From the IMG/VR virus record IMGVR_UViG_2939177367_000002: DNA of 37,633 bases; one strand, written 5' to 3'. Made by a program: the position numbers and the translations under genes. Below the pieces are notes generated by a model. The model was not told where the DNA came from and ran no database searches. It was given only the letters and a program-made list of their open reading frames with translations. Position 1 is the first letter of the stretch. Each line of letters begins with the position of its first letter. Below are positions 1,136 through 27,555 of the stretch, piece after piece. This DNA is from a virus. Lineage: Duplodnaviria > Heunggongvirae > Uroviricota > Caudoviricetes.

Positions 1136-2812
1136 CTAAGCAACATGTAGTTCATCGTTGGCGGAAGTGGCTGCTTTGCGCTCCTGCTCAATAGCTAGAG
1201 ACTCTCTATATTCTTTCGCCTCTGCAAACATTGTCCAGTGGGCGTTGATGTTCATGTCTTCAATAACTGATTTGATTTCTTTTAAATTTACGTTAAAAAA
1301 CTCTTTTCGTGAGTTAATTTTATTGACCTGCTTTTCGTTGAAAACTTTATGCAGATGGTTTTCTAATGATGGTGCATCATCACTATAAATCATCGCATGA
1401 ACATCGAACGAAAAAGGAACACTAGCATCTCCGAGTTCACGAACACGATCAAGTGGTTCAAGGCGGCGTGTCATTCCAATTTTATATACATCTTCGCCAA
1501 ATGAACCAATATTACTAATGATATAGACGTGGCCTGATCTGGTTTGTTGAGCCATAGAAATAGCTCGTTGATTTTTAGCTTCAGCTTCTTCATATTTTAA
1601 CTGTAGTTCAGCTATTTTTTGCTCTAAAGCTAAGCGTTGTTCTTCATTTGCAAGCATAAGTTCTTTCGTTGCTTTATTTATAGCTTGCTGAATAGCTTTT
1701 TCTTCTTTTTCAGCTTCTTTTATCGCTTTTTCATATTCTCTACGAGCTCTTTCCTCTTCACGAAGCTGTTCTTTAATCCTTCTTTGCTCTTCTTTTTCTT
1801 CGAGCATAATTTCATTAACTGCTACACCCCATTTTAGCTCGTTGAGTCTTGCCTGAAGATAGATGTCACTTATTTTTGCGGACCTAAAGGCAGAGCCATT
1901 GTAATTTACTAGTTGAAATGCATCTTTTATTTCTTGGGAAAGTTTTCCAAAATTGTTGTGTTTGACTTTTGATAAAATACTGTCAACTCTTCCATTGAAG
2001 GCATCCAAAACAAAGTTTATGGCAGTATTACGCCTGTTTTGCTCAACATAATCACACGAAGCAGCTTTATTAGTTTTTATTAATGATTTGGTTAACTCTC
2101 TGGCTTTTTGTAATTCCTTGCCTGCATCTGTAAATTCATAATTTTCTGCCAGCTCATCAAGTACACTACGGTTAGGGATGATCCATTCATCACCATAACC
2201 TTCAATTTTATTTTTCATTGATTTTGCAACTGCTTCATATTTTTCTGCAAACTCTTTAGCTTCATATGCTGAACCAGCAATCTCCTTTGCTCTTTCTTCT
2301 GCATCAGAAATAATTTTTACTGCATTGTCATTAGCATTTGAGATTAGCTCATTTGCTTTATTATTAGCATTATCAAGACGTTCTTTGGCTTTCAGGCGTG
2401 CATCGCGAGCGTCTTTGGTGATTGCTATAGCTTCGCTATTAGCGTTGCTTATTGTCATCTGAGCTTGATAATTTGCTTCGTTTACTGTTTTAGCCGCCTT
2501 AATTTGGGCTTCATCTATTTTTTGCTTGGCTATTGAGTCCGCATTTTTTATCTTATTCTCTGCATCCATTACTGCGCTGTGCAATTCTTCGTATTGCCAC
2601 AATGGTGCTGCTCGCCCTTCAAGCTCTGATAATTCTCGTACGGTCTGTGCTAGTTTTTCTTGATTTTCAATCAGTTGGTTAGAAAGGGCTATGTTGTTAG
2701 CTGTCAGGTTATCTATAGCCGCTTTGTGTTTTTTACTTTGTTTAAATAATATTACAGCTAGAACAGGGGCGAGAAATGCTAATAAGAGTATAACGATGGC
2801 AAATGAATTCAT
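1136..2812 (-). CDS. Cargo protein, 558 aa: N-terminal transmembrane helix, long coiled coil, C-terminal T5orf172/GIY-YIG-like domain (DUF4041-like central region)
   Basis: ATG at 2812 with AAGGAT ribosome-binding site only 20 bp after the repressor stop. N-terminus MNSFAIVILLLAFLAPVLAVILF is hydrophobic. C-terminus contains GHVYIISN...YKIGMTRR...FDVHAMIYS resembling the T5orf172 fold. Region is visibly AT-rich compared with flanking phage genes. Confidence 0.75.
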   Translation of the reverse strand: MNSFAIVILLLAFLAPVLAVILFKQSKKHKAAIDNLTANNIALSNQLIENQEKLAQTVRELSELEGRAAPLWQYEELHSAVMDAENKIKNADSIAKQKIDEAQIKAAKTVNEANYQAQMTISNANSEAIAITKDARDARLKAKERLDNANNKANELISNANDNAVKIISDAEERAKEIAGSAYEAKEFAEKYEAVAKSMKNKIEGYGDEWIIPNRSVLDELAENYEFTDAGKELQKARELTKSLIKTNKAASCDYVEQNRRNTAINFVLDAFNGRVDSILSKVKHNNFGKLSQEIKDAFQLVNYNGSAFRSAKISDIYLQARLNELKWGVAVNEIMLEEKEEQRRIKEQLREEERARREYEKAIKEAEKEEKAIQQAINKATKELMLANEEQRLALEQKIAELQLKYEEAEAKNQRAISMAQQTRSGHVYIISNIGSFGEDVYKIGMTRRLEPLDRVRELGDASVPFSFDVHAMIYSDDAPSLENHLHKVFNEKQVNKINSRKEFFNVNLKEIKSVIEDMNINAHWTMFAEAKEYRESLAIEQERKAATSANDELHVA

Positions 2813-4295: not shown

Positions 4296-4592
4296 ATGCT
4301 GACGAAAGAACCATCATTTGCATCGCTGCTGGTAAAACAAAGCCCGGCAATGCACTACGGTCACGGCTGGATCACGGGTGAGGATGGAAAACGCTGGCAT
4401 CCATGTCATTCACAAGATGAATTGCTGTCTGAATTGACCACGAGGAAACGGAGAAAGTCCAAATGTATGCGGCAGAAAGTGAAGTGGTTTATCAGTTTCG
4501 TTACAGAGGGGAGAGTTATTCAGTACCTGAAGATGATTTGCTCTGTTGCTATCCGTCATTGTCGGGCGATGGCAGTTACTTTTTCACGTTAA
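4296..4592 (+). CDS. Hypothetical early protein, 98 aa (Fil-like position); 3' extent uncertain
   Basis: ATG at 4296 with GAGG 6 nt upstream. The N-terminal half looks protein-like; the C-terminal half is Cys/Arg-rich and overlaps the next ORF by about 130 nt. Confidence 0.35.
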   Translation: MLTKEPSFASLLVKQSPAMHYGHGWITGEDGKRWHPCHSQDELLSELTTRKRRKSKCMRQKVKWFISFVTEGRVIQYLKMICSVAIRHCRAMAVTFSR

Positions 4593-4687
4593 AGGATGGG
4601 ACGTTTTTACGGGGAGAGCAGGTTAAAGAGACGATACGAAAAAATGTATCTCCTCTTGAGCGTTACCGTAAGAACAAAGAACGATAG
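4463..4687 (+). CDS. Hypothetical early protein, 74 aa
   Basis: ATG at 4463 with GGAGAAA ribosome-binding site; balanced composition (MYAAESEVVYQFRYRGESYSVPEDDL...). Confidence 0.5.
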   Translation: MYAAESEVVYQFRYRGESYSVPEDDLLCCYPSLSGDGSYFFTLKDGTFLRGEQVKETIRKNVSPLERYRKNKER

Positions 4688-4709
4688 CTGCGTTTGGGGG
4701 ATATGAAGT

Positions 4710-5051
4710 ATGGCAATTAATGGCGCTGCAGCAACTGTTCCATTAAGCCCCGGTGAACGCCTGAATGGACTTAATCACATTGCGGAGTTAAGGGCGAAAG
4801 TTTTTGGCCTGAATATTGAGTCAGAGCTTGAGCGGTTTATTAAAGATATGCGTGATCCACGGGATATCAATAATGAACAAAATAAACGGGCACTGGCTGC
4901 CATATTCTTTATGGCAAAAATTCCAGCTGAACGTCATAGCATCAGCATTAATGAGCTGACCACTGACGAAAAGCGGGAGCTGATTAAAGCAATGAATCAT
5001 TTTCGTGCAGTGGTGAGCTTATTTCCCAGACGGCTAACCATGCCGAATTAA
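4710..5051 (+). CDS. Hypothetical early protein, 113 aa
   Basis: ATG at 4710 downstream of GGGGGA; same-strand operon context. Confidence 0.55.
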   Translation: MAINGAAATVPLSPGERLNGLNHIAELRAKVFGLNIESELERFIKDMRDPRDINNEQNKRALAAIFFMAKIPAERHSISINELTTDEKRELIKAMNHFRAVVSLFPRRLTMPN

Positions 5052-5118
5052 CCAACTAATGAAATTAATGGCGTAAACCCGCCGGGCATCCCTTTATCTA
5101 AATTCAGGAGAATTGCTT

Positions 5119-5352
5119 ATGCGTAATATTGAAACCCTCACGACCAAAACCGGACCGGATGATGCAGGTCTTAATCTTTTACTGACAGAGGCTCGTCTGG
5201 AAGAACGCCGGGCAAGGGCTGAAGCAATGGCTGCTCGCCTCGATAGCCTGGCGTGTCATATCACCTCCCGCCAGCTAAACCACGTCGAAGCGGCAGAACT
5301 GCTGCGTGTGACTGCTGAAGCAATCCAGAACGAAGCGCAGGAGATCCACTGA
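5119..5352 (+). CDS. Hypothetical early protein, 77 aa
   Basis: ATG at 5119 with CAGGAG 8 nt upstream; its stop overlaps the next start (ATGA). Confidence 0.55.
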   Translation: MRNIETLTTKTGPDDAGLNLLLTEARLEERRARAEAMAARLDSLACHITSRQLNHVEAAELLRVTAEAIQNEAQEIH

Positions 5353-5579
5353 TGGCTGATGCAATGGATCTCGTACAGCAGCGCGTTGAAGAAGAACGCC
5401 AACGCCATATCCGTGCTGCCCGTGCCAAAACGCCGGGCGTGTCCCGTGTGCTTTGCGTTGAGTGTGAAGCGCCAATTCCGCCAGCACGCCGCCGTGCCAT
5501 TCCGGGTGTGCAGCTTTGCATTACCTGTCAGGAAATCGCAGAGCTGAAAGGCAAACATTACAACGGAGGTGCTGTATGA
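5352..5579 (+). CDS. TraR/DksA-family C4 zinc-finger protein, 75 aa
   Basis: Two Cys pairs (CVECEAP...CITCQ) with the spacing typical of phage/plasmid TraR-like zinc fingers; the position corresponds to P2 orf82. Confidence 0.75.
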   Translation: MADAMDLVQQRVEEERQRHIRAARAKTPGVSRVLCVECEAPIPPARRRAIPGVQLCITCQEIAELKGKHYNGGAV

Positions 5580-6433
5580 GCACCATCCTGAAATGGGCAG
5601 GAAATAAAACCGCCATAATGTCCGAACTGAAAAAGCATCTTCCTGCTGGCCCGCGACTGGTTGAACCTTTCGCGGGTTCCTGTGCAGTGATGATGGAGAC
5701 GGATTACCCCAGCTATCTTGTTGCGGATATTAATCCTGATTTAATCAACCTCTATAAAAAGGTTGCTGCTGATTGTGAGGCGTTTATATCTCGTGCCAGA
5801 GCTTTATTTGAGGAAGCAAACAGGGAGGTGGCTTATTACAACATAAGGCAGGAGTTTAATTACTCCACTGAAATTACTGATTTCATGAAAGCGGTATATT
5901 TCCTGTATCTCAATCGTCACGGTTACCGTGGTTTATGTCGCTATAACAAGAGCGGGCATTTCAACATTCCCTACGGTAATTATAAAAATCCGTATTTCCC
6001 TGAAAAAGAAATTCGCGCATTTGCAGAGAAAGCCCAGCGGGCAACGTTTATCTGCGCCAGCTTTGATGAAACGCTGGCGATGTTGAAGGTGGGGGATGTG
6101 GTGTATTGCGATCCGCCTTATGACGGTACGTTTTCCGGCTATCACACTGATGGTTTCACTGAAGATGATCAGTATCACCTGGCATCCATTCTTGAACATC
6201 GGTCATCAGAAGGACATCCGGTCATTGTTTCTAACAGTGACACATCCCTGATCCGTTCGTTGTATCGCAATTTCACCCACCACTACATCAAAGCAAAACG
6301 CAGCATCGGTGTGGCAGCTGGCGAGGGTAAATCAGCAACAGAAATCATTGCTGTTTCCGGGCCGCGCTGCTGGGTGGGATTTGATTATTCGCGTGGCGTG
6401 GACAGTTCTGCCGTGTACGGAGTACGTGCATGA
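5576..6433 (+). CDS. DNA N6-adenine methyltransferase (Dam-like, D12 class), 285 aa
   Basis: ATG at 5576 with GGAGG ribosome-binding site. SAM-binding-like segment [11 protein letters not shown] and catalytic DPPY motif (VYCDPPYDG) visible in translation. No nuclease partner adjacent. Confidence 0.85.
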
Positions 6434-9700: not shown

Positions 9701-9916
9701 ATGTCAAGCATCGCCGCATTTAGCCTGGGTAACCCAGTTGAACGTCTGGCAAGGGTTCTTAAAGAGAACCAGGACAAACTCAATCTTAGTAAAGATGGTT
9801 TTGTGTCCGTAGACTTGTCTAACAAAAGAGCAATGGATGCCATCAAGGCACAGATGGATAAGCTTGAAGGCATCAAAACGAGCACTGTAAAAGAGAAAAC
9901 TAATAGAACCAGATAA
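9701..9916 (+). CDS. Hypothetical small soluble protein, 71 aa; first gene of a two-gene cargo operon
   Basis: ATG at 9701 with GGGGGAG upstream; its stop TAA overlaps the next ATG (TAATG at 9914..9918), implying translational coupling. Confidence 0.5.
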   Translation: MSSIAAFSLGNPVERLARVLKENQDKLNLSKDGFVSVDLSNKRAMDAIKAQMDKLEGIKTSTVKEKTNRTR

Positions 9917-10758
9917 TGGCAACATTACTTTTAGCAGTGATTTTGGTTAGTGGTTTTATTTATGTAAACCTATCACTTTCAACAAGATACCGATATAAGC
10001 GTTCCAACGGCTGGGACGCTTATTTTTTTGTGGCTGCCTGGGGTATCGTTTTTTTTCTCCTTGGCGGTTTTTTCACCTTTATTTTGAACGTCAGCGGAGG
10101 GTTTCGTTGGCTGGCTAATGCCTTGAATCTAACACCTGACAGTTTTAATGGCATGTTGTCTTCATCGAAAGACAAACTTCAAAGAATAAATGAAATCAAA
10201 CAGATAGCATGGGTTATGATTTCAATTGTCCTCGCTGCGATTTCAGGTTTTGGAAATAAGTTACGCACATCACGTGGAGATCGTCGCTGGGATGCCTTAG
10301 CTAAAGCTGTGGGTAATAACGCTTTCGAATCATTACTCATGGAAGCGTCCGCAAGACAGTTTCCGATCATAGCAACTCTGTCGTCTCGCAAAATCTATGT
10401 TGGTCTTGTTACTTGTCCGGCGTTAGAAAACGGGCTTTCAGAGCACCTTGAACTTCTCCCGATGTTAAGCGGATATCGGGATAAAGATGATCTAACGATT
10501 AGTATCACGACTAACTATCACCAACATTATCTTGATAGTGGTGTGATAAGTGGAATGTCTCGGCTTAATATCGAAGATTTCCGTGTGCTCATACCAAAAG
10601 ATGAGGTTGAAACAATTTCGTTTTTTGATACTGAGACATATAACAAATTTAAAGAAAATGAAGCCAGGGATAGAAAGAACTGTCGAAAGATTGATAGTAA
10701 AAGTGCATCTTCGCGCAGCAAGCGTGCAGCAGATGCTGAGTCAAATGATCGTGCATGA
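9916..10758 (+). CDS. Hypothetical membrane protein, 280 aa, three predicted transmembrane helices plus a ~170-aa charged C-terminal domain
   Basis: Hydrophobic segments LLLAVILVSGFIYVNL, YFFVAAWGIVFFLLGGFFTFIL and IAWVMISIVLAAISGFG; no family recognised. Confidence 0.6.
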   Translation: MATLLLAVILVSGFIYVNLSLSTRYRYKRSNGWDAYFFVAAWGIVFFLLGGFFTFILNVSGGFRWLANALNLTPDSFNGMLSSSKDKLQRINEIKQIAWVMISIVLAAISGFGNKLRTSRGDRRWDALAKAVGNNAFESLLMEASARQFPIIATLSSRKIYVGLVTCPALENGLSEHLELLPMLSGYRDKDDLTISITTNYHQHYLDSGVISGMSRLNIEDFRVLIPKDEVETISFFDTETYNKFKENEARDRKNCRKIDSKSASSRSKRAADAESNDRA

Positions 10759-10995: not shown

Positions 10996-12669
10996 ATGGA
11001 AAAATATCAAGATGAGGAATATGTAGATGATTTAACTGAGCGTGTTTTTCTCATTAAGCAACAACTGGAAGCGGGAAAACTAAAAATAGCTCATCATCTT
11101 GTAGAAGGTTTTATTGAAAGTTTTAAAAGAATAAGGCTGCGACAGGATGGTAAAGTTGACCCTTCTACTGTTGATGGCAGAATAAGGGCTATGGGAGCAG
11201 CGGTTAATCACTTTTTAGAAAGAGAAGATATAAAAAACAAATACTCTATTCAGGACTTGCAAAGTTCTTACTTTAATATTCTTTTTAGTAATTTTGGCGA
11301 GTTGTTTTATCTGATGAAAAAAACTAATGCAACGCCACATAAAGCATCAAGTTTTTTTTCTCAACAAGAAGAATATGTTAAGCAAATAGAAGATATTTTT
11401 CCTGAGTTATATAATCAGGTAATAGAGTTTTGGCAGGTAACATCCGATATTGGTGTAATACATTTGCAGGATGGTTCTCAGTTTAAAGCTAATTTTTCTG
11501 GTGACTTATTTCCTGCATTTGATGAGAATGCTGTCTCTATTGCAGGGTTGTATGTTGATACTATTTCACTTCCATGTCCTATATTAAGAGTCGGTCGTCT
11601 CTATGAAAAGTCAGATAAGGCTGAGTTTACAAGGATACTTCTGAAGCATGTCCTAACATGTATGACATATAAAGAAGTAGCGCTTGAAGATATAGAGCCA
11701 GCAATAGTATTAATTTTGCCGGATAGAAGAGATTTTGAAACTGAGAGCAAAAAAAATTTGATGAGTTTTTGTGAGCCTTATGCTCTGACTCATGCGCAAT
11801 ATCTCTATGATCGACGGTTCGAAAGCTACGATGAATTTCGAGATTTTAGTTATTCGATGAATGATATTGATGCTGTTCTTAAAAATATTAAGAGAGCAGA
11901 TAGACTTATTTTTGATACAGCATGGGGGCTAAATCCAAAAACTCAATTAGAAAAACTACTATCTGATAAAAAAAGAATATCACGTAATGTTGTTGGTGAT
12001 CATGCTGGAATGGAGGTTTTCCTTTCCTGCATTGGAAGAATGCCGCAAGCCTATTCAGCAAAATGTAATGCACAAGAACTTGGTAGTACTCCATATATAA
12101 ATGCAGACACATCTTGGCTCTATTATACTTGGCTTATTGAGTACGAATCTCTTAATTTTGATGTCAATGATATTGAACTAAAAAATTTGCATATGGTTCA
12201 TGCGTTATCTGCTGGTATGCAAGATGGTTTTTCATGGTTAGGAAATGTACCGGTCAATAAAATAATTGAGTTGAGACGTAACAAATTGATGGAGGATGTA
12301 AGATCCATCTTATCAAATGGTGTTGACTCTTTAATCAATTCTTCGGCAGAGAGCTTTTCGAGGACAACGCAAAAAGTAATTGATAATGTAGACCGGGCTT
12401 TTATTGAACATCAAAGGATTCTTGCAAAAGCCCAAAAAGAGAAATTGAGAATTTACGGACTAGATGTCCTACCATGTATCGCAAATGGTGCTATAGCAAT
12501 TGCTGGAGCGCTGACTGGCAATACTACTTTAACGGCGTTAAGTGCAGGCCTTGGAGTAATAGGTATTCCGAGTATTAGTGATATCAAATCTAAATTTAAG
12601 CAGAGGCAAGAGAAGCTTGATGCCTATCAACGTTCTGTTACAGGTATACTCTTTAGCCATAAATCTTAA
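10996..12669 (+). CDS. Hypothetical protein, 557 aa, very AT-rich, with a Gly/Ala-rich hydrophobic segment near the C-terminus; no recognisable family
   Basis: ATG at 10996 with GGAG upstream and an AT-rich promoter-like leader. Long uninterrupted frame with protein-like composition; C-terminal GAIAIAGALTG...ALSAGLGVIGIP; terminator hairpin downstream. Confidence 0.7.
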   Translation: MEKYQDEEYVDDLTERVFLIKQQLEAGKLKIAHHLVEGFIESFKRIRLRQDGKVDPSTVDGRIRAMGAAVNHFLEREDIKNKYSIQDLQSSYFNILFSNFGELFYLMKKTNATPHKASSFFSQQEEYVKQIEDIFPELYNQVIEFWQVTSDIGVIHLQDGSQFKANFSGDLFPAFDENAVSIAGLYVDTISLPCPILRVGRLYEKSDKAEFTRILLKHVLTCMTYKEVALEDIEPAIVLILPDRRDFETESKKNLMSFCEPYALTHAQYLYDRRFESYDEFRDFSYSMNDIDAVLKNIKRADRLIFDTAWGLNPKTQLEKLLSDKKRISRNVVGDHAGMEVFLSCIGRMPQAYSAKCNAQELGSTPYINADTSWLYYTWLIEYESLNFDVNDIELKNLHMVHALSAGMQDGFSWLGNVPVNKIIELRRNKLMEDVRSILSNGVDSLINSSAESFSRTTQKVIDNVDRAFIEHQRILAKAQKEKLRIYGLDVLPCIANGAIAIAGALTGNTTLTALSAGLGVIGIPSISDIKSKFKQRQEKLDAYQRSVTGILFSHKS

Positions 12670-23343: not shown

Positions 23344-23941
23344 TCTGCTGCCACCGGGTTCAACTTCACTGGAGCGCCGACTGGCGCAAACCTGTAGCGG
23401 GATTTCTGATTTGCAGGTGCCGCTGCGTGACTTGTGGAATCCGGCTACCTGTCCGGTCAGCTTCCTGCCTTATCTCGCCTGGGCGTTCTCTGTGGATCGC
23501 TGGGACGAGGGCTGGACAGAAAGCGTCAAACGCCAGGTAGTGAAGGATGCTTTTTATATTCATCAGCATAAAGGAACCACCAGTGCCGTGCGGCGGGTGG
23601 TGGAACCGTTCGGATTCCTGATCCGCATTATTGAGTGGTGGCAGACCGGAGAAACACCGGGCACGTTTCGCCTGGATATCGGCGTGCAGGACCAGGGCAT
23701 CACTGAAGATACCTATCTGGAACTTGAGCGACTGATAAGCGATGCCAAACCATGTAGCCGCCACATGATCGGCATGTCCATCAATCTGCAGACCAGCGGC
23801 CCGCATTGGGTGGGAGCCGCCAGCTATCTTGGCGAAGAAATCACGATCTATCCGTATATCAACGAAACGATTATTTCCGGTGGCACCGCGCATGAAGGCG
23901 GGGCGGTCCATGTTATTGACACAATGAGAGTGAATCCATGA
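23336..23941 (+). CDS. I: Baseplate/tail protein (P2 gpI-like), 201 aa
   Basis: ATG at 23336 overlapping the J end; synteny. Confidence 0.8.
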   Translation: MNSLLPPGSTSLERRLAQTCSGISDLQVPLRDLWNPATCPVSFLPYLAWAFSVDRWDEGWTESVKRQVVKDAFYIHQHKGTTSAVRRVVEPFGFLIRIIEWWQTGETPGTFRLDIGVQDQGITEDTYLELERLISDAKPCSRHMIGMSINLQTSGPHWVGAASYLGEEITIYPYINETIISGGTAHEGGAVHVIDTMRVNP

Positions 23942-25467
23942 GCACAAAATTTTATACCCTGCTGACGGATATTGGCGCGGCGAAACTTGCCAGCGCCGCC
24001 GCGCTCGGTGTGCCGCTAAAAATTACCCATATGGCGGTGGGCGATGGCGGTGGAGTATTGCCAACGCCGGACGCAAAGCAGACGGCACTGGTAAATGAGA
24101 AACGCCGGGCTGCGCTGAATATGCTTTATATCGACCCGCAGAACAGCAGCCAGATTATTGCCGAACAGGTGATCCCTGAAAACGAGGGCGGTTGGTGGAT
24201 ACGTGAAGTGGGCTTGTTTGATGAGTCCGGGGCATTGATTGCCGTGGGCAACTGCCCGGAAAGCTATAAGCCGCAACTGGCTGAAGGTAGCGGGCGCACT
24301 CAGACCGTGCGCATGGTGCTGATTACCAGCAGCACGGACAATATCACCCTGAAAATCGACCCTGCTGTAGTGCTGGCAACCCGCAAGTATGTGGATGACA
24401 AGGCACTGGAGCTGAAGGTGTACGCGGATGATCAGATGGCAAAACATCTTGCCGCACCGGACCCGCATTCACAGTACGCGCCAAAAGCCAGCCCGACATT
24501 TACCGGAACCCCCAAAGCGCCAACGCCAGCGGCGGGGAATAATACCACGCAGGTTGCGACCACTGCGTTTGTACAGGCGGCACTGACGGCCCTTATTAAT
24601 GGTGCGCCAGCCACGCTGGACACGCTGAAAGAAATAGCCGCAGCCATTAACAATGATCCGAATTTCAGTACCACCATTAACAATGCGCTGGCACTTAAAG
24701 CACCGTTGTCGAGTCCGGCACTCACCGGAACGCCAACAGCCCCCACGGCGGCGCAGTCGGTCAACAATACACAGATTGCCACTACGGCTTTTGTGAAATC
24801 GGCGATTGCAGGAATGGTGGGTTCTGCACCTGCTGCACTGGATACACTGAACGAACTGGCGGCGGCACTGGGGAATGATCCGAACTTTGCCACGACAATG
24901 CTTAATGCGCTGGCAGGTAAACAACCGCTGGACAATACGCTTACCAATTTGAGTGGAAAGGATGTAGCTGGTCTTCTCACATACCTTGGTTTGGGAGAAG
25001 GTTCGGCATTACCCGTTGGTGTGCCTGTTCCGTGGCCTTCCGCCACTCCGCCAACAGGCTGGCTGAAATGCAATGGTGCGCCTTTTTCTGCCGAAGAGTA
25101 TCCTGAACTGGCAAAGGCTTACCCGACAAATAAATTGCCTGATTTACGCGGTGAGTTTATTCGTGGCTGGGATGACGGGAGAGGCATTGACCCAGGAAGG
25201 ATTCTATTGGCTTCACAGGAGCATGCAATGCAAAACGTCACTGGTTCAATAGGGAAAATTCAGCTTTTTAGAGATTTAGTTATCAGTGGTCCATTTCGTC
25301 ATAACGGTAATAACTATCTGACTACTGGATTAACAGCGGTTACAGGCCAAAATAGTGGAGGGAGTGGTGTCACAACATTTGATTTCGATATGTCAAGGGT
25401 GGCAAATACCGCCAATGAAACTCGCCCGGTGAACGTTGCATTTAACTACATTGTGAGGGCTGCATAA
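23938..25467 (+). CDS. H: Tail fibre protein (P2 gpH-like), 509 aa, current orientation of the invertible C-terminus
   Basis: ATG at 23938; conserved N-terminal fibre domain, internal ~75-aa tandem repeat and a C-terminal receptor-binding-like domain. Confidence 0.85.
   Translation: MSTKFYTLLTDIGAAKLASAAALGVPLKITHMAVGDGGGVLPTPDAKQTALVNEKRRAALNMLYIDPQNSSQIIAEQVIPENEGGWWIREVGLFDESGALIAVGNCPESYKPQLAEGSGRTQTVRMVLITSSTDNITLKIDPAVVLATRKYVDDKALELKVYADDQMAKHLAAPDPHSQYAPKASPTFTGTPKAPTPAAGNNTTQVATTAFVQAALTALINGAPATLDTLKEIAAAINNDPNFSTTINNALALKAPLSSPALTGTPTAPTAAQSVNNTQIATTAFVKSAIAGMVGSAPAALDTLNELAAALGNDPNFATTMLNALAGKQPLDNTLTNLSGKDVAGLLTYLGLGEGSALPVGVPVPWPSATPPTGWLKCNGAPFSAEEYPELAKAYPTNKLPDLRGEFIRGWDDGRGIDPGRILLASQEHAMQNVTGSIGKIQLFRDLVISGPFRHNGNNYLTTGLTAVTGQNSGGSGVTTFDFDMSRVANTANETRPVNVAFNYIVRAA
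24489..24950 (+). repeat. Tandem in-frame repeat (two ~225-bp units) within the tail fibre gene
   Basis: Translation shows SPTFTGTPKAPT...NTTQVATTAFVQAA...DTLKEIAAAINNDPNF followed by SPALTGTPTAPT...NTQIATTAFVKSA...DTLNELAAALGNDPNF. Coordinates approximate. Confidence 0.6.
24974..24999. repeat. Invertase crossover site (gix/cix/pix-like) inside gene H: TTCTCACATACC-TT-GGTTTGGGAGAA
   Basis: 26-bp dyad whose right half is the exact inverted copy of TTCTCCCAAACC at 26842..26853; the 15 bp at 24986..25000 are perfectly inverted at 26841..26855. Confidence 0.7.
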
Positions 25468-26069
25468 TGGATAACGCTGTATTAAATAGCGAGTTTATTG
25501 CTACGAAGGCAGGGGATATTACTGTTTATAACTATGATGGTGAAACTCGGGAATATATTTCCTCTTCAAATGAATATCTTGCCATTGGTGTCGGTATCCC
25601 TGCGCATTCCTGTTTAGACGCCCCTGGTGCATATAAGGATGGTTATACAATTTGCCGCTCTGTGGATTTAAAATCATGGGAATATGTGCCAGACCATCGA
25701 GGAGAAACTGTTTACAGCACTGAAACAGGAGAATCGGAAGGAATCACAGCTCTGGGTGATTACCCTGAAAATACAACCACTATCTCCCCGTTAACGCCAT
25801 ATGATAAATGGGATGGTGAGAAATGGGTGACAGATACCGAGGCACAGCATAGCGCCGCAGTAGACGCGGCAGAAGCACAGCGTCAGTCACTGATTGATGC
25901 TGCAATGGTTTCCATTAGTCTGATTCAGTTGAAATTGCAGGCCGGGCGGAAGCTGACGCAGGCAGAAACCACCCGGCTTAACGCCGTGCTTGATTACATT
26001 GACGCGGTGACGGCAACAGATACGAGCACCGCGCCGGATGTCATCTGGCCTGAACTGCCGGAGGCGTAG
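25467..26069 (+). CDS. G: Tail fibre assembly chaperone (P2 gpG-like), 200 aa
   Basis: ATG overlapping the H stop; conserved C-terminal DAVTATDTSTAPDVIWPELP segment shared with the convergent tfa' product. Confidence 0.75.
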   Translation: MDNAVLNSEFIATKAGDITVYNYDGETREYISSSNEYLAIGVGIPAHSCLDAPGAYKDGYTICRSVDLKSWEYVPDHRGETVYSTETGESEGITALGDYPENTTTISPLTPYDKWDGEKWVTDTEAQHSAAVDAAEAQRQSLIDAAMVSISLIQLKLQAGRKLTQAETTRLNAVLDYIDAVTATDTSTAPDVIWPELPEA

Positions 26070-26481
26070 GCCATTCAATATCTGGCGCACCGGAAGTATC
26101 GACCAGTTCCAGTGCGTCCAGATAATCCAGCCACAAATTATATTGCGCCAGTTCGTCACCTTTCAGACGACCAATAGCCGCTTTACCAGGCCATTGTTTA
26201 CTGTTCATATAATCGTTGGCCTGATTAATCAATTGCTGCTTTTCCAGTTCGGCTGCAGCAATCTGTTCCTCATGTGTTGGTGGTGGAATTTCAGACCATG
26301 CAGGAAAACCATTTTCTCCAGCGATACGGATTTTTCCTTTCGGCGGTAATCCGGAAAACTCAATATACACCTGCTCATCAACTTCAACAGCATCATCTGG
26401 CCATGAGTCAGCTTGAGTGTAATCCTCTTTCATCTCCAGCGGATAGAAAGAGTTTGTAGTCGCGGAATATATATAATTCAT
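26041..26481 (-). CDS. Alternative tail fibre assembly chaperone (tfa'), 146 aa
   Basis: ATG at 26481 (reverse). C-terminus LELVDTSGAPDIEWPTPP parallels the gpG C-terminus; follows the H' cassette on the minus strand. Confidence 0.7.
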   Translation of the reverse strand: MNYIYSATTNSFYPLEMKEDYTQADSWPDDAVEVDEQVYIEFSGLPPKGKIRIAGENGFPAWSEIPPPTHEEQIAAAELEKQQLINQANDYMNSKQWPGKAAIGRLKGDELAQYNLWLDYLDALELVDTSGAPDIEWPTPPAVQAR

Positions 26482-26502
26482 TTCTCATTCCATATAGCTA
26501 AA

Positions 26503-26855
26503 TTAACAGCCTAACGCTAAAAATGAAGCGCCGAGACCTGGAATACCGGCTCTGGATATAAATTTAACCGGGTCGGAACTAAAACCTGCACAGGCAATAT
26601 AACCAACAGCCCCGCTATCTGGTGTGTAGTCTTGTGAGACCAAAACACGCAGACATCTGTTCGGAAATGCAATCGGGAAATGGGTTACCACATCCTGTGC
26701 AATGCCTGGAGTGCTGATTGAGCCCCACTGAAGAATAAAACCAGATGGTAATTTTTGATATCCAGTAACTGAAACAGAAAGCGTGAAGCTACCCATATCA
26801 GGTATCTGATTCGCCCCTGTCCCCACATTCCTTTTTGCCGCTTCTCCCAAACCAA
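26503..26855 (-). other. Promoterless alternative tail-fibre C-terminal cassette (H'), about 117 codons, joined in frame to H after inversion
   Basis: Minus-strand frame reads ...[19 protein letters not shown]... to a stop at 26503; the codon phase of GGT TTG GGA GAA is identical at both crossover sites, so the fusion is in frame. Confidence 0.65.
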
Positions 26856-26867
26856 CGTTTATGAAAA
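26842..26867. repeat. Invertase crossover site (distal): TTCTCCCAAACC-AA-CGTTTATGAAAA
   Basis: Inverted partner of the site at 24974..24999; located at the start of the H' cassette, about 55 bp from the invertase gene. Confidence 0.7.
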
Positions 26868-26922
26868 TGCAGAGATAACGGCTAACTGGCATCATCCCCG
26901 GTTTTTATTCAGGGGATTGATC

Positions 26923-27489
26923 ATGCTTATTGGCTATGTACGCGTGTCAACAAATGACCAGAACACCGATTTGCAACGTAATGCACTGAACTGCGCGGGA
27001 TGTGAGCGGATTTTTGAGGACAAAATCAGTGGCACTAAGTCCGACAGACCGGGGCTGAAAAAACTACTCAGGACACTATCGGCAGGAGACACGCTGGTTG
27101 TCTGGAAGCTGGACAGGTTGGGGCGCAGTATGCGGCATCTTGTTACGCTGATAGAAGAGTTGCGCCAGCGTGGTGTGAATTTCAGAAGCCTGACTGACAG
27201 TATTGATACCAGTACCCCAATGGGCCGTTTCTTTTTTCATGTCATGGGTGCCCTGGCTGAAATGGAACGCGAACTGATAGTTGAACGTACCAGGGCAGGG
27301 CTGGCTGCAGCTCGTGCCAAAGGCAGAGTAGGTGGACGCCGTCCTAAGTTGACCACCGAACAGTGGGCACAGATTGGGCGTTTACTCGAGGCCGGAGAAT
27401 CAAGACAGCGTATTGCACTGATTTTTGATGTAGGCGTTTCTACCATTTATAGAAAATTTCCGGCAAATAAGATCAATGAATCCCCCTGA
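26923..27489 (+). CDS. Serine DNA invertase (Hin/Gin/Cin/Pin family), 188 aa
   Basis: ATG at 26923. N-terminus MLIGYVRVSTNDQNTDLQRNAL with the catalytic Ser in the GYVRVS motif; C-terminal helix-turn-helix; near-identical in pattern to E. coli Pin/Gin as I recall them. Confidence 0.9.
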   Translation: MLIGYVRVSTNDQNTDLQRNALNCAGCERIFEDKISGTKSDRPGLKKLLRTLSAGDTLVVWKLDRLGRSMRHLVTLIEELRQRGVNFRSLTDSIDTSTPMGRFFFHVMGALAEMERELIVERTRAGLAAARAKGRVGGRRPKLTTEQWAQIGRLLEAGESRQRIALIFDVGVSTIYRKFPANKINESP

Positions 27490-27537: not shown

Positions 27538-27555
27538 TGTGTGAATAACGACACA
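27538..27555. promoter_or_regulatory. TGT-N12-ACA dyad upstream of FI; candidate Ogr-dependent late promoter element
   Basis: TGTgtgaataacgacACA read directly, about 77 bp upstream of the FI start. Confidence 0.45.

Follow-up and report, generated by a model that had tools for sequence, protein, structure and literature searches.

Here we present evidence that the tail-fibre operon of a P2/186-like prophage very probably contains an inversion switch of the Gin/Cin/Pin type, which chooses between two fibre tips. The window, a stretch of 37,633 nucleotides from the virus record IMGVR_UViG_2939177367_000002, had been described in an initial annotation as carrying a Gin/Pin-type invertible tail-fibre segment. 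This description was borne out by the identity of the enzyme, the crossover sites, the in-frame fusion generated by inversion and the existence of relatives in both orientations. The switch of the window prophage is probably active, and the window copy itself would be expected to flip.

The host element appears to be an intact P2/186-like prophage of E. coli, integrated beside ybjL. Its tail cluster follows the order V-W-J-I-H-G ... FI-FII-E-T-U-D-ogr, as judged from the order of open reading frames and from Pfam Tail_P2_I, Phage_tail_fib and sheath domains, with ogr and D being annotated in matching genomes; a GPA replication protein, CI/CII regulators and an integrase are also encoded. The locus between G and FI, proposed at the outset to be a variable locus of P2-like phages, is the slot occupied by fun(Z) in P2, and the slot after G has been described in the literature as a hotspot that often holds an invertase. 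Its downstream edge is marked by a TGT-N12-ACA motif on the + strand upstream of FI (27538..27555); in the P2 record the pF activator site is annotated in the equivalent position, after fun(Z). From what is known of P2/186 late promoters, the window motif is probably where the activator of the late PF promoter binds. Strain AR_0085 has a 100% identical host flank but carries a different, Mu-interrupted prophage.

The invertible segment measures 1870 bp from core to core (24986..26855) and is delimited by two 26-bp crossover sites. The left site lies inside H (24974..24999) and consists of TTCTCACATACC-TT-GGTTTGGGAGAA, with the central dinucleotide at 24986-24987. The right site (26842..26867) reads TTCTCCCAAACC AA CGTTTATGAAAA, with the central dinucleotide at 26854-26855, which as the reverse complement becomes TTTTCATAAACG-TT-GGTTTGGGAGAA. 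When compared in inverted orientation, the sites are identical at 22 of 26 positions and have the central dinucleotide in common, so that the claim of a dyad site in H with an inverted partner stands at these coordinates. Both are imperfect dyads (self-complementarity 20/26 and 16/26), and an inverted-repeat search recovered the pair as 27-nt arms of 85% complementarity. The family pattern TTnTCnnAAACC-NN-GGTTTnnGAnAA, with matching central dinucleotides, was found in both sites, in inverted orientation and with a single deviation, the outer left half-site being ATACC where the family has AAACC. In degenerate form, the pattern matches at only two places in the 37.6 kb, against 0 expected from 100 shuffles. 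A shufflon-like system, which would have at least three sites, was rejected because only two were found in the window even when 3 mismatches were allowed. The inner half of the left site is the e14 P-segment repeat TTGGTTTGGGAGAAGG, and the right site matches its right-hand counterpart in the e14 P segment at 26/26 positions; the e14 repeats that match the inner half-sites of the window have been inverted by PinE and PinQ in published experiments. In addition, the ends of one Logan contig (L017) coincide with bases 24986 and 26855 of the segment.

In the current assembly, H (23938..25467, + strand) encodes a tail fibre of 509 aa, identical to AOR19186.1/WP_069684319.1, with a Pfam Phage_tail_fib domain at the N-terminus (1-150) and a Collar domain (361-408). 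Its constant part, Hc (23938..24985, + strand; ~349 aa), lies outside the segment; its identity is 100% to the H protein of phage 500465-1 and 99.1% to that of E. coli NQ3, whereas the tips are only 54-61% identical. The variable tip now joined to it, Hv(+) (24986..25467, + strand), carries the Collar domain and is followed on the same strand by tfa (25467..26069), a P2 G-like tail fibre assembly chaperone with a Caudo_TAP domain that is 88% identical to e14 TfaE. On the - strand lie the alternative tip, Hv' (26503..26855), with a Gp53-like_C domain, and its chaperone gene, tfa' (26041..26481), whose Caudo_TAP product is 61% identical to e14 TfaP over 102 aa and is present in exact form in 2962 blocks of a public collection. 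The reading frames and Pfam domains thus agree with the proposed layout of an H C-terminus plus tfa on one strand and H' plus tfa' on the other. The two tips have no BLAST match to each other, each has its own Caudo_TAP chaperone, and only one at a time is joined to the constant part: Collar with tfa on the + strand, Gp53-like_C with tfa' on the - strand. Comparison with known fibres, as had been suggested, gave 58% identity of the + tip to the variable part of e14 StfE and 29% of the - tip to e14 StfP, with no BLAST match to the Mu or P1 tips; a search of NCBIfam returned no specific family for the fibre parts or for the invertase. By analogy with Mu, P1 and carotovoricin, the two tips would confer different host ranges or receptor specificities.

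The alternative tip had been called a promoterless C-terminus. No promoter-like match was found upstream, and the tip may well be promoterless, but it does not stand alone as a fragment: it belongs to a 130-aa open reading frame (26503-26895, - strand) that extends 13 codons beyond the site to its own ATG at 26895 and is labelled in RefSeq as a 130-aa gp53-like protein. Inversion exchanges the short orphan tip reading frame that borders the invertase, and the product of this frame, made in the lysogen, might act on the host side, besides or in place of a role in the virion, by blocking the adsorption of other phages. The e14 stfE gene is of a similar build, with a short outside N-terminus followed by a tip, and the right site of the window and its flank are near-identical to those of e14, where the chimeric StfE2, formed after inversion by PinQ/PinE, is reported to block phage adsorption (Kirigo et al. 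2025). We nevertheless consider such a role unlikely here, since the prophage looks complete and has a full-length H in its late operon, which makes an explanation on the phage side sufficient. Moreover, neither a promoter-like nor a good ribosome-binding sequence precedes the orphan ATG, and identity between the orphan tip and the tip of StfP, from which StfE2 is formed, is only 29%.

Immediately outside the segment, as had been claimed, lies an intact serine DNA invertase gene of the Gin/Cin/Pin family (26923..27489, + strand; 188 aa) with Pfam Resolvase (3-135) and HTH_7 (138-181) domains. The start is most likely the ATG at 26923, which gives the N-terminus MLIGYVRVST as in Gin, Cin and Pin, rather than the upstream TTG at 26917. 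Amino-acid identity is 86.7% to PinE (e14), 79.4% to Cin (P1) and 76.1% to Gin (Mu), and the match to the Mu Gin structures 3uj3/4m6f (E = 1e-92) spans residues 1-184 ungapped. The reading frame is full length and contains the YVRVS motif with the catalytic Ser9, as well as DRLGRS at 64-69.

A recombinational enhancer (a Fis-binding sis element) is predicted, by homology only, in the 5' end of the invertase gene (26941..27012). Its homologue in the P1 record is an annotated enhancer, at cin +19..+90; identical positions number 56/72 in P1, 52/72 in Mu and 63/72 in e14. Synonymous diversity among 12 invertase genes was 0.30 within the predicted enhancer and 0.46 elsewhere, making it the lowest 24-codon block, a result that is supportive only, since the 12 genes are mutually related; an earlier test with only four genes was weak (identical codons 5/19 vs 10/93). 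Candidate Fis sites sought with the 15-bp consensus and judged by eye, GTGTCAACAAATGAC and GCGCGGGATGTGAGC, match it poorly, and the enhancer was therefore assigned from homology to the P1 annotation together with synonymous-site conservation. On the protein side, the residues of Hin that are reported to contact Fis or the enhancer, and to be specific to invertases that depend on them, are kept: Gln151, Arg154 and Leu155 as Q150, R153 and L154, and the basic residues 47, 48 and 51 as K46, K47 and R50. The enzyme is also wild type where mutations are known to give Fis independence (Gin M114, Hin H107). By analogy with the studied systems, inversion would be Fis-dependent. A scan for promoters and terminators yielded nothing above shuffled expectation and no consensus promoter for the invertase.

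By analogy with Hin and Gin, invertase dimers would bind the two 26-bp sites, which would be synapsed on the Fis-bound enhancer in the first ~90 bp of the invertase gene. Both sites would then be cut at the central TT/AA, half of the complex would rotate by 180 degrees, and religation would leave the 1870 bp inverted. The late operon (V-W-J-I-H-G) would enter the segment from one side only, and for that reason the orientation would set which tip is made together with its cognate chaperone, giving either the Collar fibre of 509 aa (Hc-Hv(+), with tfa) or the Gp53-like fibre of 466 aa (Hc-Hv', with tfa'). A lysogen population would thereby release virions of two receptor specificities.

The codon phase at the two sites had been proposed to be the same, and inverting 24986-26855 in silico indeed produced an uninterrupted H' of 466 aa. 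This predicted fusion of Hc and Hv' has an exact match in GenBank (EEZ6658420.1). Although the window holds one orientation only, the element type occurs in both, with all figures coming from relatives rather than from the window copy. Among complete E. coli genome records with the locus, 105 have the window orientation and 80 are flipped. The near-identical yak isolates E. coli NQ3 and LS4 share a 9783-bp stretch with no difference other than in the 1872 bp between the same sites, which one isolate has as the exact reverse complement of the other; L009 and L014 also carry the segment in opposite orientations. By megablast, over half of the complete E. coli genomes contain the cassette architecture; the exact cassette is absent from those in the collection, the best match having 93.7% identity over 88%. 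Look-ups with tfa and tfa' found no flipped twin of the exact prophage among the matches listed.

These data bear on the possibility that the cassette is an inherited relic, frozen in the window copy, which would no longer invert meaningfully and would make the Collar-tip fibre only. A silent invertase promoter or the weakened ATACC half-site could be the cause, and it would fit such a state that the window and an identical Logan contig (L010) show one orientation, that no promoter-like site lies upstream of the invertase, and that the gene is broken in some relatives, for example in L021, where it is split into 84- and 94-aa products. We regard this as very unlikely, because the window invertase is intact and 99.5% identical to that of the isolated phage 500465-1, the ATACC left site is shared by the NQ3/LS4 pair with its exact flip, and the flipped fusion of the same H constant part to the same tip exists in another assembly. 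That a chance inverted repeat happens to lie beside an unrelated resolvase, for example of a transposon, with - strand reading frames that are no functional alternatives, has practically no probability left: short inverted repeats are indeed frequent in general (17 other pairs in the 6-kb region), but this reading is already refuted by a site pattern with 0 chance matches expected, by sites identical or near-identical to known pix, by an enzyme that scores 312 bits to Gin against 102-122 bits to gamma-delta and Tn3 resolvases, and by - strand reading frames with strong Pfam matches and conserved homologues.

For the inversion switch, the closest match in the parts is the e14 P segment with PinE, from a cryptic prophage of E. 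coli K-12, for which inversion has been demonstrated experimentally. It shares the order of tip, tfa, tfa', tip' and invertase, and its left site is identical to that of the window at 22/26 positions, with the same central TT. However, e14 is lambdoid and defective, with fibre genes that are either truncated or pseudogenes, whereas the window cassette joins a full-length P2-type H in a complete tail cluster, and the alternative tips are but distantly similar (see above). The P2-like loci of EPEC E2348/69 occupy the same slot, with tip, tfa, tfa', gp53-like tip and recombinase followed by the tail sheath; DNA identity to the window is 87% over 2052 bp and the inner half-sites are the same. Both orientations coexist in culture, as established by sequencing and PCR (Goldberg et al. 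2014; PMC4272514). One of these loci, at 2977580-2979467, lies in a prophage remnant in which the constant part of the fibre is replaced by an integrase fragment, and its invertase is 78% identical (146/188) to the window enzyme; the second EPEC P2 locus, with three repeats, takes four states, whereas the window has two sites only. Escherichia phage 500465-1 (Peduoviridae, Wadgaonvirus; NC_049342) has the same left site and gene order, but its tips are only 61% (+ tip) and 37% (- tip) identical to those of the window; judging from this alignment, the cassette has been replaced in an otherwise near-identical backbone.

The Mu G segment with Gin and the P1 C segment with Cin belong to the same class of mechanism and follow the same logic, in which a constant Sc is joined by inversion to Sv/U or Sv'/U'. 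Their 26-bp gix/cix sites show the window's pattern, and their invertase genes likewise contain the enhancer in the 5' end. Both segments are larger (~3 kb in Mu, 4.2 kb in P1), the core dinucleotide of Mu is TC/GA, unlike the TT/AA of the window, and the phage backbones as well as the fibre tips differ. Salmonella Hin belongs to the same invertase family but flips a promoter instead of a fibre tip. Fin, another member of the family, from the P2-like prophage Fels-2, is reportedly able to substitute for Hin.

Switches of this type are common in P2-like prophages and have already been described, with flipping shown in 2014; the window locus is thus a well-known kind of phage host-range switch and opens no new question. 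For annotation, it follows that the 130-aa "gp53-like domain-containing protein" and the 509-aa fibre are to be read as parts of two states of one switch, and that the orientation of the segment in any assembly is arbitrary. For phage biology and therapy, lysates induced from the window prophage will likely contain virions of two host-range types. Where an E. coli strain has e14, Mu-like or other Pin-type elements as well, each invertase can probably use the sites of the others.

Two other elements, a Mu-like prophage and a different prophage of the myovirus type beside ompW, contain the window cassette with only 2 mismatches. Their flanks are no more similar to those of the window than expected at random (~25% identity), and their invertase is only 53% identical to the window enzyme. 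The match starts and stops precisely at the central dinucleotide of both sites. Breakpoints at the crossover dinucleotide would be hard to obtain by homologous recombination and could be explained by two successive site-specific exchanges between prophages in one chromosome. We therefore lean, with some reserve, towards the 1870-bp cassette being a mobile unit that invertase-catalysed recombination at the crossover sites exchanges between unrelated prophages. The idea of cassette swapping is an old one (Sandmeier 1994, as cited by De Paepe et al. 2014), and the present case, if true, would be a clean example of it at base-pair resolution.

The invertible region sits within a tail gene cluster of the P2/186 type in which, by ORF and Pfam analysis, the baseplate genes V, W, J and I (Tail_P2_I domain) lie upstream, and the sheath gene FI, the tube gene, E, the tape-measure gene, U and D lie downstream. 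Elsewhere in the window are an integrase, the CI and CII regulators, a GPA replication protein and ORFs for portal, terminase and capsid, and E. coli ybjL-ybjM-grxA (99-100% identity) borders it on the right. On the strength of this gene set and flank, the window apparently carries a complete E. coli prophage.

The fibre gene H (23938-25467, + strand) encodes a 509-aa protein, identical to AOR19186.1/WP_069684319.1, with a Phage_tail_fib N-terminal domain and a Collar domain at residues 361-408. Pfam assigned a Caudo_TAP chaperone domain to the next gene, tfa (25467-26069, +), and to a second gene on the opposite strand, tfa' (26041-26481, -), which is accompanied by an ORF for an alternative tip with a Gp53-like_C fibre-tip domain (26503-26895, -). 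The convergent tfa and tfa' overlap at their 3' ends by 29 bp (26041-26069), as is also the case for tfaP and tfaE in e14. Just outside the segment, at 26923-27489 (+), lies the gene for a 188-aa serine invertase, a relative of Gin with Resolvase and HTH_7 domains. ORFs and domains thus agree with the initial annotation, which had put the H C-terminus and tfa on one strand, an alternative tip and tfa' on the other, and a serine invertase immediately beyond. It was also correct in assigning the system to the second variable locus of P2-like phages, between G and FI: in P2, fun(Z) lies between G and the pF promoter, and the window has tfa', the alternative tip and the invertase in this slot; beyond them comes a TGT-N12-ACA motif, a putative late-promoter activator site, 77 bp upstream of FI. 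According to a 2024 preprint on the hotspots of P2, this locus frequently encodes a DNA invertase, with inversion of the adjacent genes.

A repeat search delimited the inverted-repeat arms at 24974-25000 and 26841-26867. The left 26-mer site is TTCTCACATACC-TT-GGTTTGGGAGAA and the right, in reverse complement, TTTTCATAAACG-TT-GGTTTGGGAGAA; the two are identical at 22/26 positions, both are imperfect dyads and the central dinucleotide is common to both, which confirms the pair of inverted dyad sites originally proposed. Their pattern is that of Mu gix and P1 cix, and in comparison with the e14 P segment the right site is identical at 26/26 positions and the left at 22/26. Furthermore, the inner half-sites, TTGGTTTGGGAGAAGG and CTTCTCCCAAACCAA, are the same sequences as the e14 repeats at which inversion by PinE and PinQ occurs (Kirigo et al. 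2025). Degenerate site patterns allowing up to 3 mismatches found the two sites and nothing else across the 37.6 kb of the window, against an expectation of zero from 100 shuffles. There being no third site in the window at this tolerance, the locus is a two-state switch, and a shufflon reading was dropped. The codon phase is equal at both sites, with ...L-G-L-G-E... encoded across the inner half-site on either strand, and in-silico inversion of 24986-26855 gave an open 466-aa protein consisting of the 349-aa constant part and the Gp53-like tip.

The invertase aligns without gaps to residues 1-184 of Mu Gin (E = 1e-92), a much stronger match than it shows to the gamma-delta or Tn3 resolvases, and is 86.7% identical to e14 PinE, 79.4% to P1 Cin, 76.1% to Mu Gin and 99.5% to the enzyme of phage 500465-1. 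Ser9 and the DRLGRS motif are both present, the positions of known Fis-independent mutations are wild type, and the residues listed by McLean et al. (PMC3798978) as conserved only in Fis/enhancer-dependent invertases are kept. Judged by sequence, the enzyme and its sites are members of the Gin/Cin/Pin group. The Cin enhancer is annotated in the P1 record at +19..+90 of cin, and the equivalent stretch here (26941-27012) shares 56/72 positions with P1, 52/72 with Mu and 63/72 with e14. In a set of 12 distinct invertase genes, synonymous diversity was 0.30 in codons 7-30 versus 0.46 in codons 31-135, and lower than in every other 24-codon block; since these genes are related and 5' gene ends are often constrained anyway, we treat this as supportive of an embedded cis element, a predicted Fis-binding enhancer.

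The locus would operate by the standard invertase mechanism. The lysogen would make the invertase, and a synapse activated by Fis and the enhancer, with cleavage at the central dinucleotide, would flip the segment; the late operon entering from V-W-J-I-H would then express whichever tip and chaperone face it, so that induced virions would bear one of two tips. An orphan tip ORF with a host-side role would be compatible with such a switch, and an anti-adsorption effect has been reported for e14 StfE2, but as the explanation of the locus it is much less likely than inversion.

For inversion of loci of the window type, relatives provide strong comparative evidence. Among complete E. coli genomes, counting records in which coverage of the 3.75-kb locus was at least 80%, 105 had the window arrangement and 80 the in-silico flipped one. 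In the yak isolates NQ3 and LS4 (chromosomes of 5,196,957 and 5,196,956 bp), whose prophage is ~94% identical to that of the window and shares the ATACC variant of the left site, a 9,783-bp stretch is identical apart from 1,872 bp between the same sites, which are an exact reverse complement with 0 mismatches. The 466-aa fusion predicted from the window matches EEZ6658420.1 exactly. Also, a P2-type prophage remnant in EPEC E2348/69 (NC_011601, 2977580-2979467) carries a homologous locus whose genes stand in the same order and whose DNA is 87% identical over 2 kb, for which both orientations have been found in single-colony cultures by sequencing and PCR. Set beside these relatives, a frozen relic, in which the window copy no longer inverts, is a much less likely reading. 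Coincidence is much less likely as well. The initial reading of the raw sequence as a Gin/Pin-type invertible tail-fibre segment is correct.

Opposite orientations were also seen in a myovirus-type prophage beside ompW (L009 and L014) and in two P2-like prophages with this cassette type on the single chromosome of GCA_902810225.1, one of which has its invertase split into 84- and 94-aa products. Contigs shorter than 2 kb were the only source for 12 of 27 blocks of the public collection with tfa and 1219 of 2962 with tfa', a pattern expected if both orientations, or multiple copies in differing contexts, are present in one sample.

The switch is an already known system, rated as such from its nearest counterparts and its wide occurrence. 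By parts the nearest is the e14 P segment with PinE; by context, phage 500465-1 and the loci in P2-like prophages of EPEC. In phage 500465-1 the constant part of H is 100% identical and the tips just 61% (+) and 37% (-). Megablast detected cassette-type sequence in 3137 of 5426 complete E. coli genomes, and the 2962 blocks with the exact tfa' protein include both P2-like and Mu-like contexts as well as both orientations. Between the window and phage 500465-1, the mosaic joint falls at the crossover site, identity declining immediately beyond it (23938-24985 versus 24986-25467).

The window cassette, 1870 bp from core to core, recurs with 2 mismatches at 4520-6389 in a Mu-like prophage (L008) and in the different, myovirus-type prophage beside ompW (L009, L014, L015). 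The flanks there are at random-level identity to the window (~25%), the invertase is just 52.7% identical, and cassette identity is bounded exactly by the central dinucleotide at both sites. Additionally, a 1870-bp Logan contig (ERR4783086) spans the invertible segment precisely, with its two ends at the core dinucleotides. The recurrence in other backbones suggests that cassettes have been swapped between unrelated prophages via site-specific recombination; such boundaries are the footprint expected if invertases themselves exchange cassettes, a hypothesis already published (Sandmeier 1994, as cited in PMC3945230). In E. coli AR_0085 (NZ_CP029741.1, 4201300-4239000), a P2-type tail cluster with a flipped cassette occupies the same ybjL-side integration site, but Mu-like genes (DDE transposase, Gam, Mor, DUF935 portal) take the place of the head and early region; apparently, a Mu-like element has interrupted a P2-like prophage or formed a hybrid with it.

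Other cargo was observed in the window. The gene at 1136-2812 (-), flanked by those for the integrase and the CI repressor, encodes 558 aa with DUF4041 and T5orf172/MUG113 domains; its match to the PADLOC model PD-Lambda-1 (E = 2e-120) identifies it as a known anti-phage gene, located in the third of the hotspots that have been described in P2-like phages. The old/tin hotspot, between the replication gene A region and the portal gene, is occupied by two ORFs with no Pfam match, 9916-10758 (+, 280 aa) and 10996-12669 (+, 557 aa); the former matches phrog_3630 alone, a family of unknown function, the latter weakly matches DitB in PADLOC (E = 7e-10), and both are possibly uncharacterised defence cargo. 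Directly upstream of replication gene A lies a D12-class N6-adenine methyltransferase (5516-6433, +), classed by PADLOC as an orphan methyltransferase (E = 1e-111).
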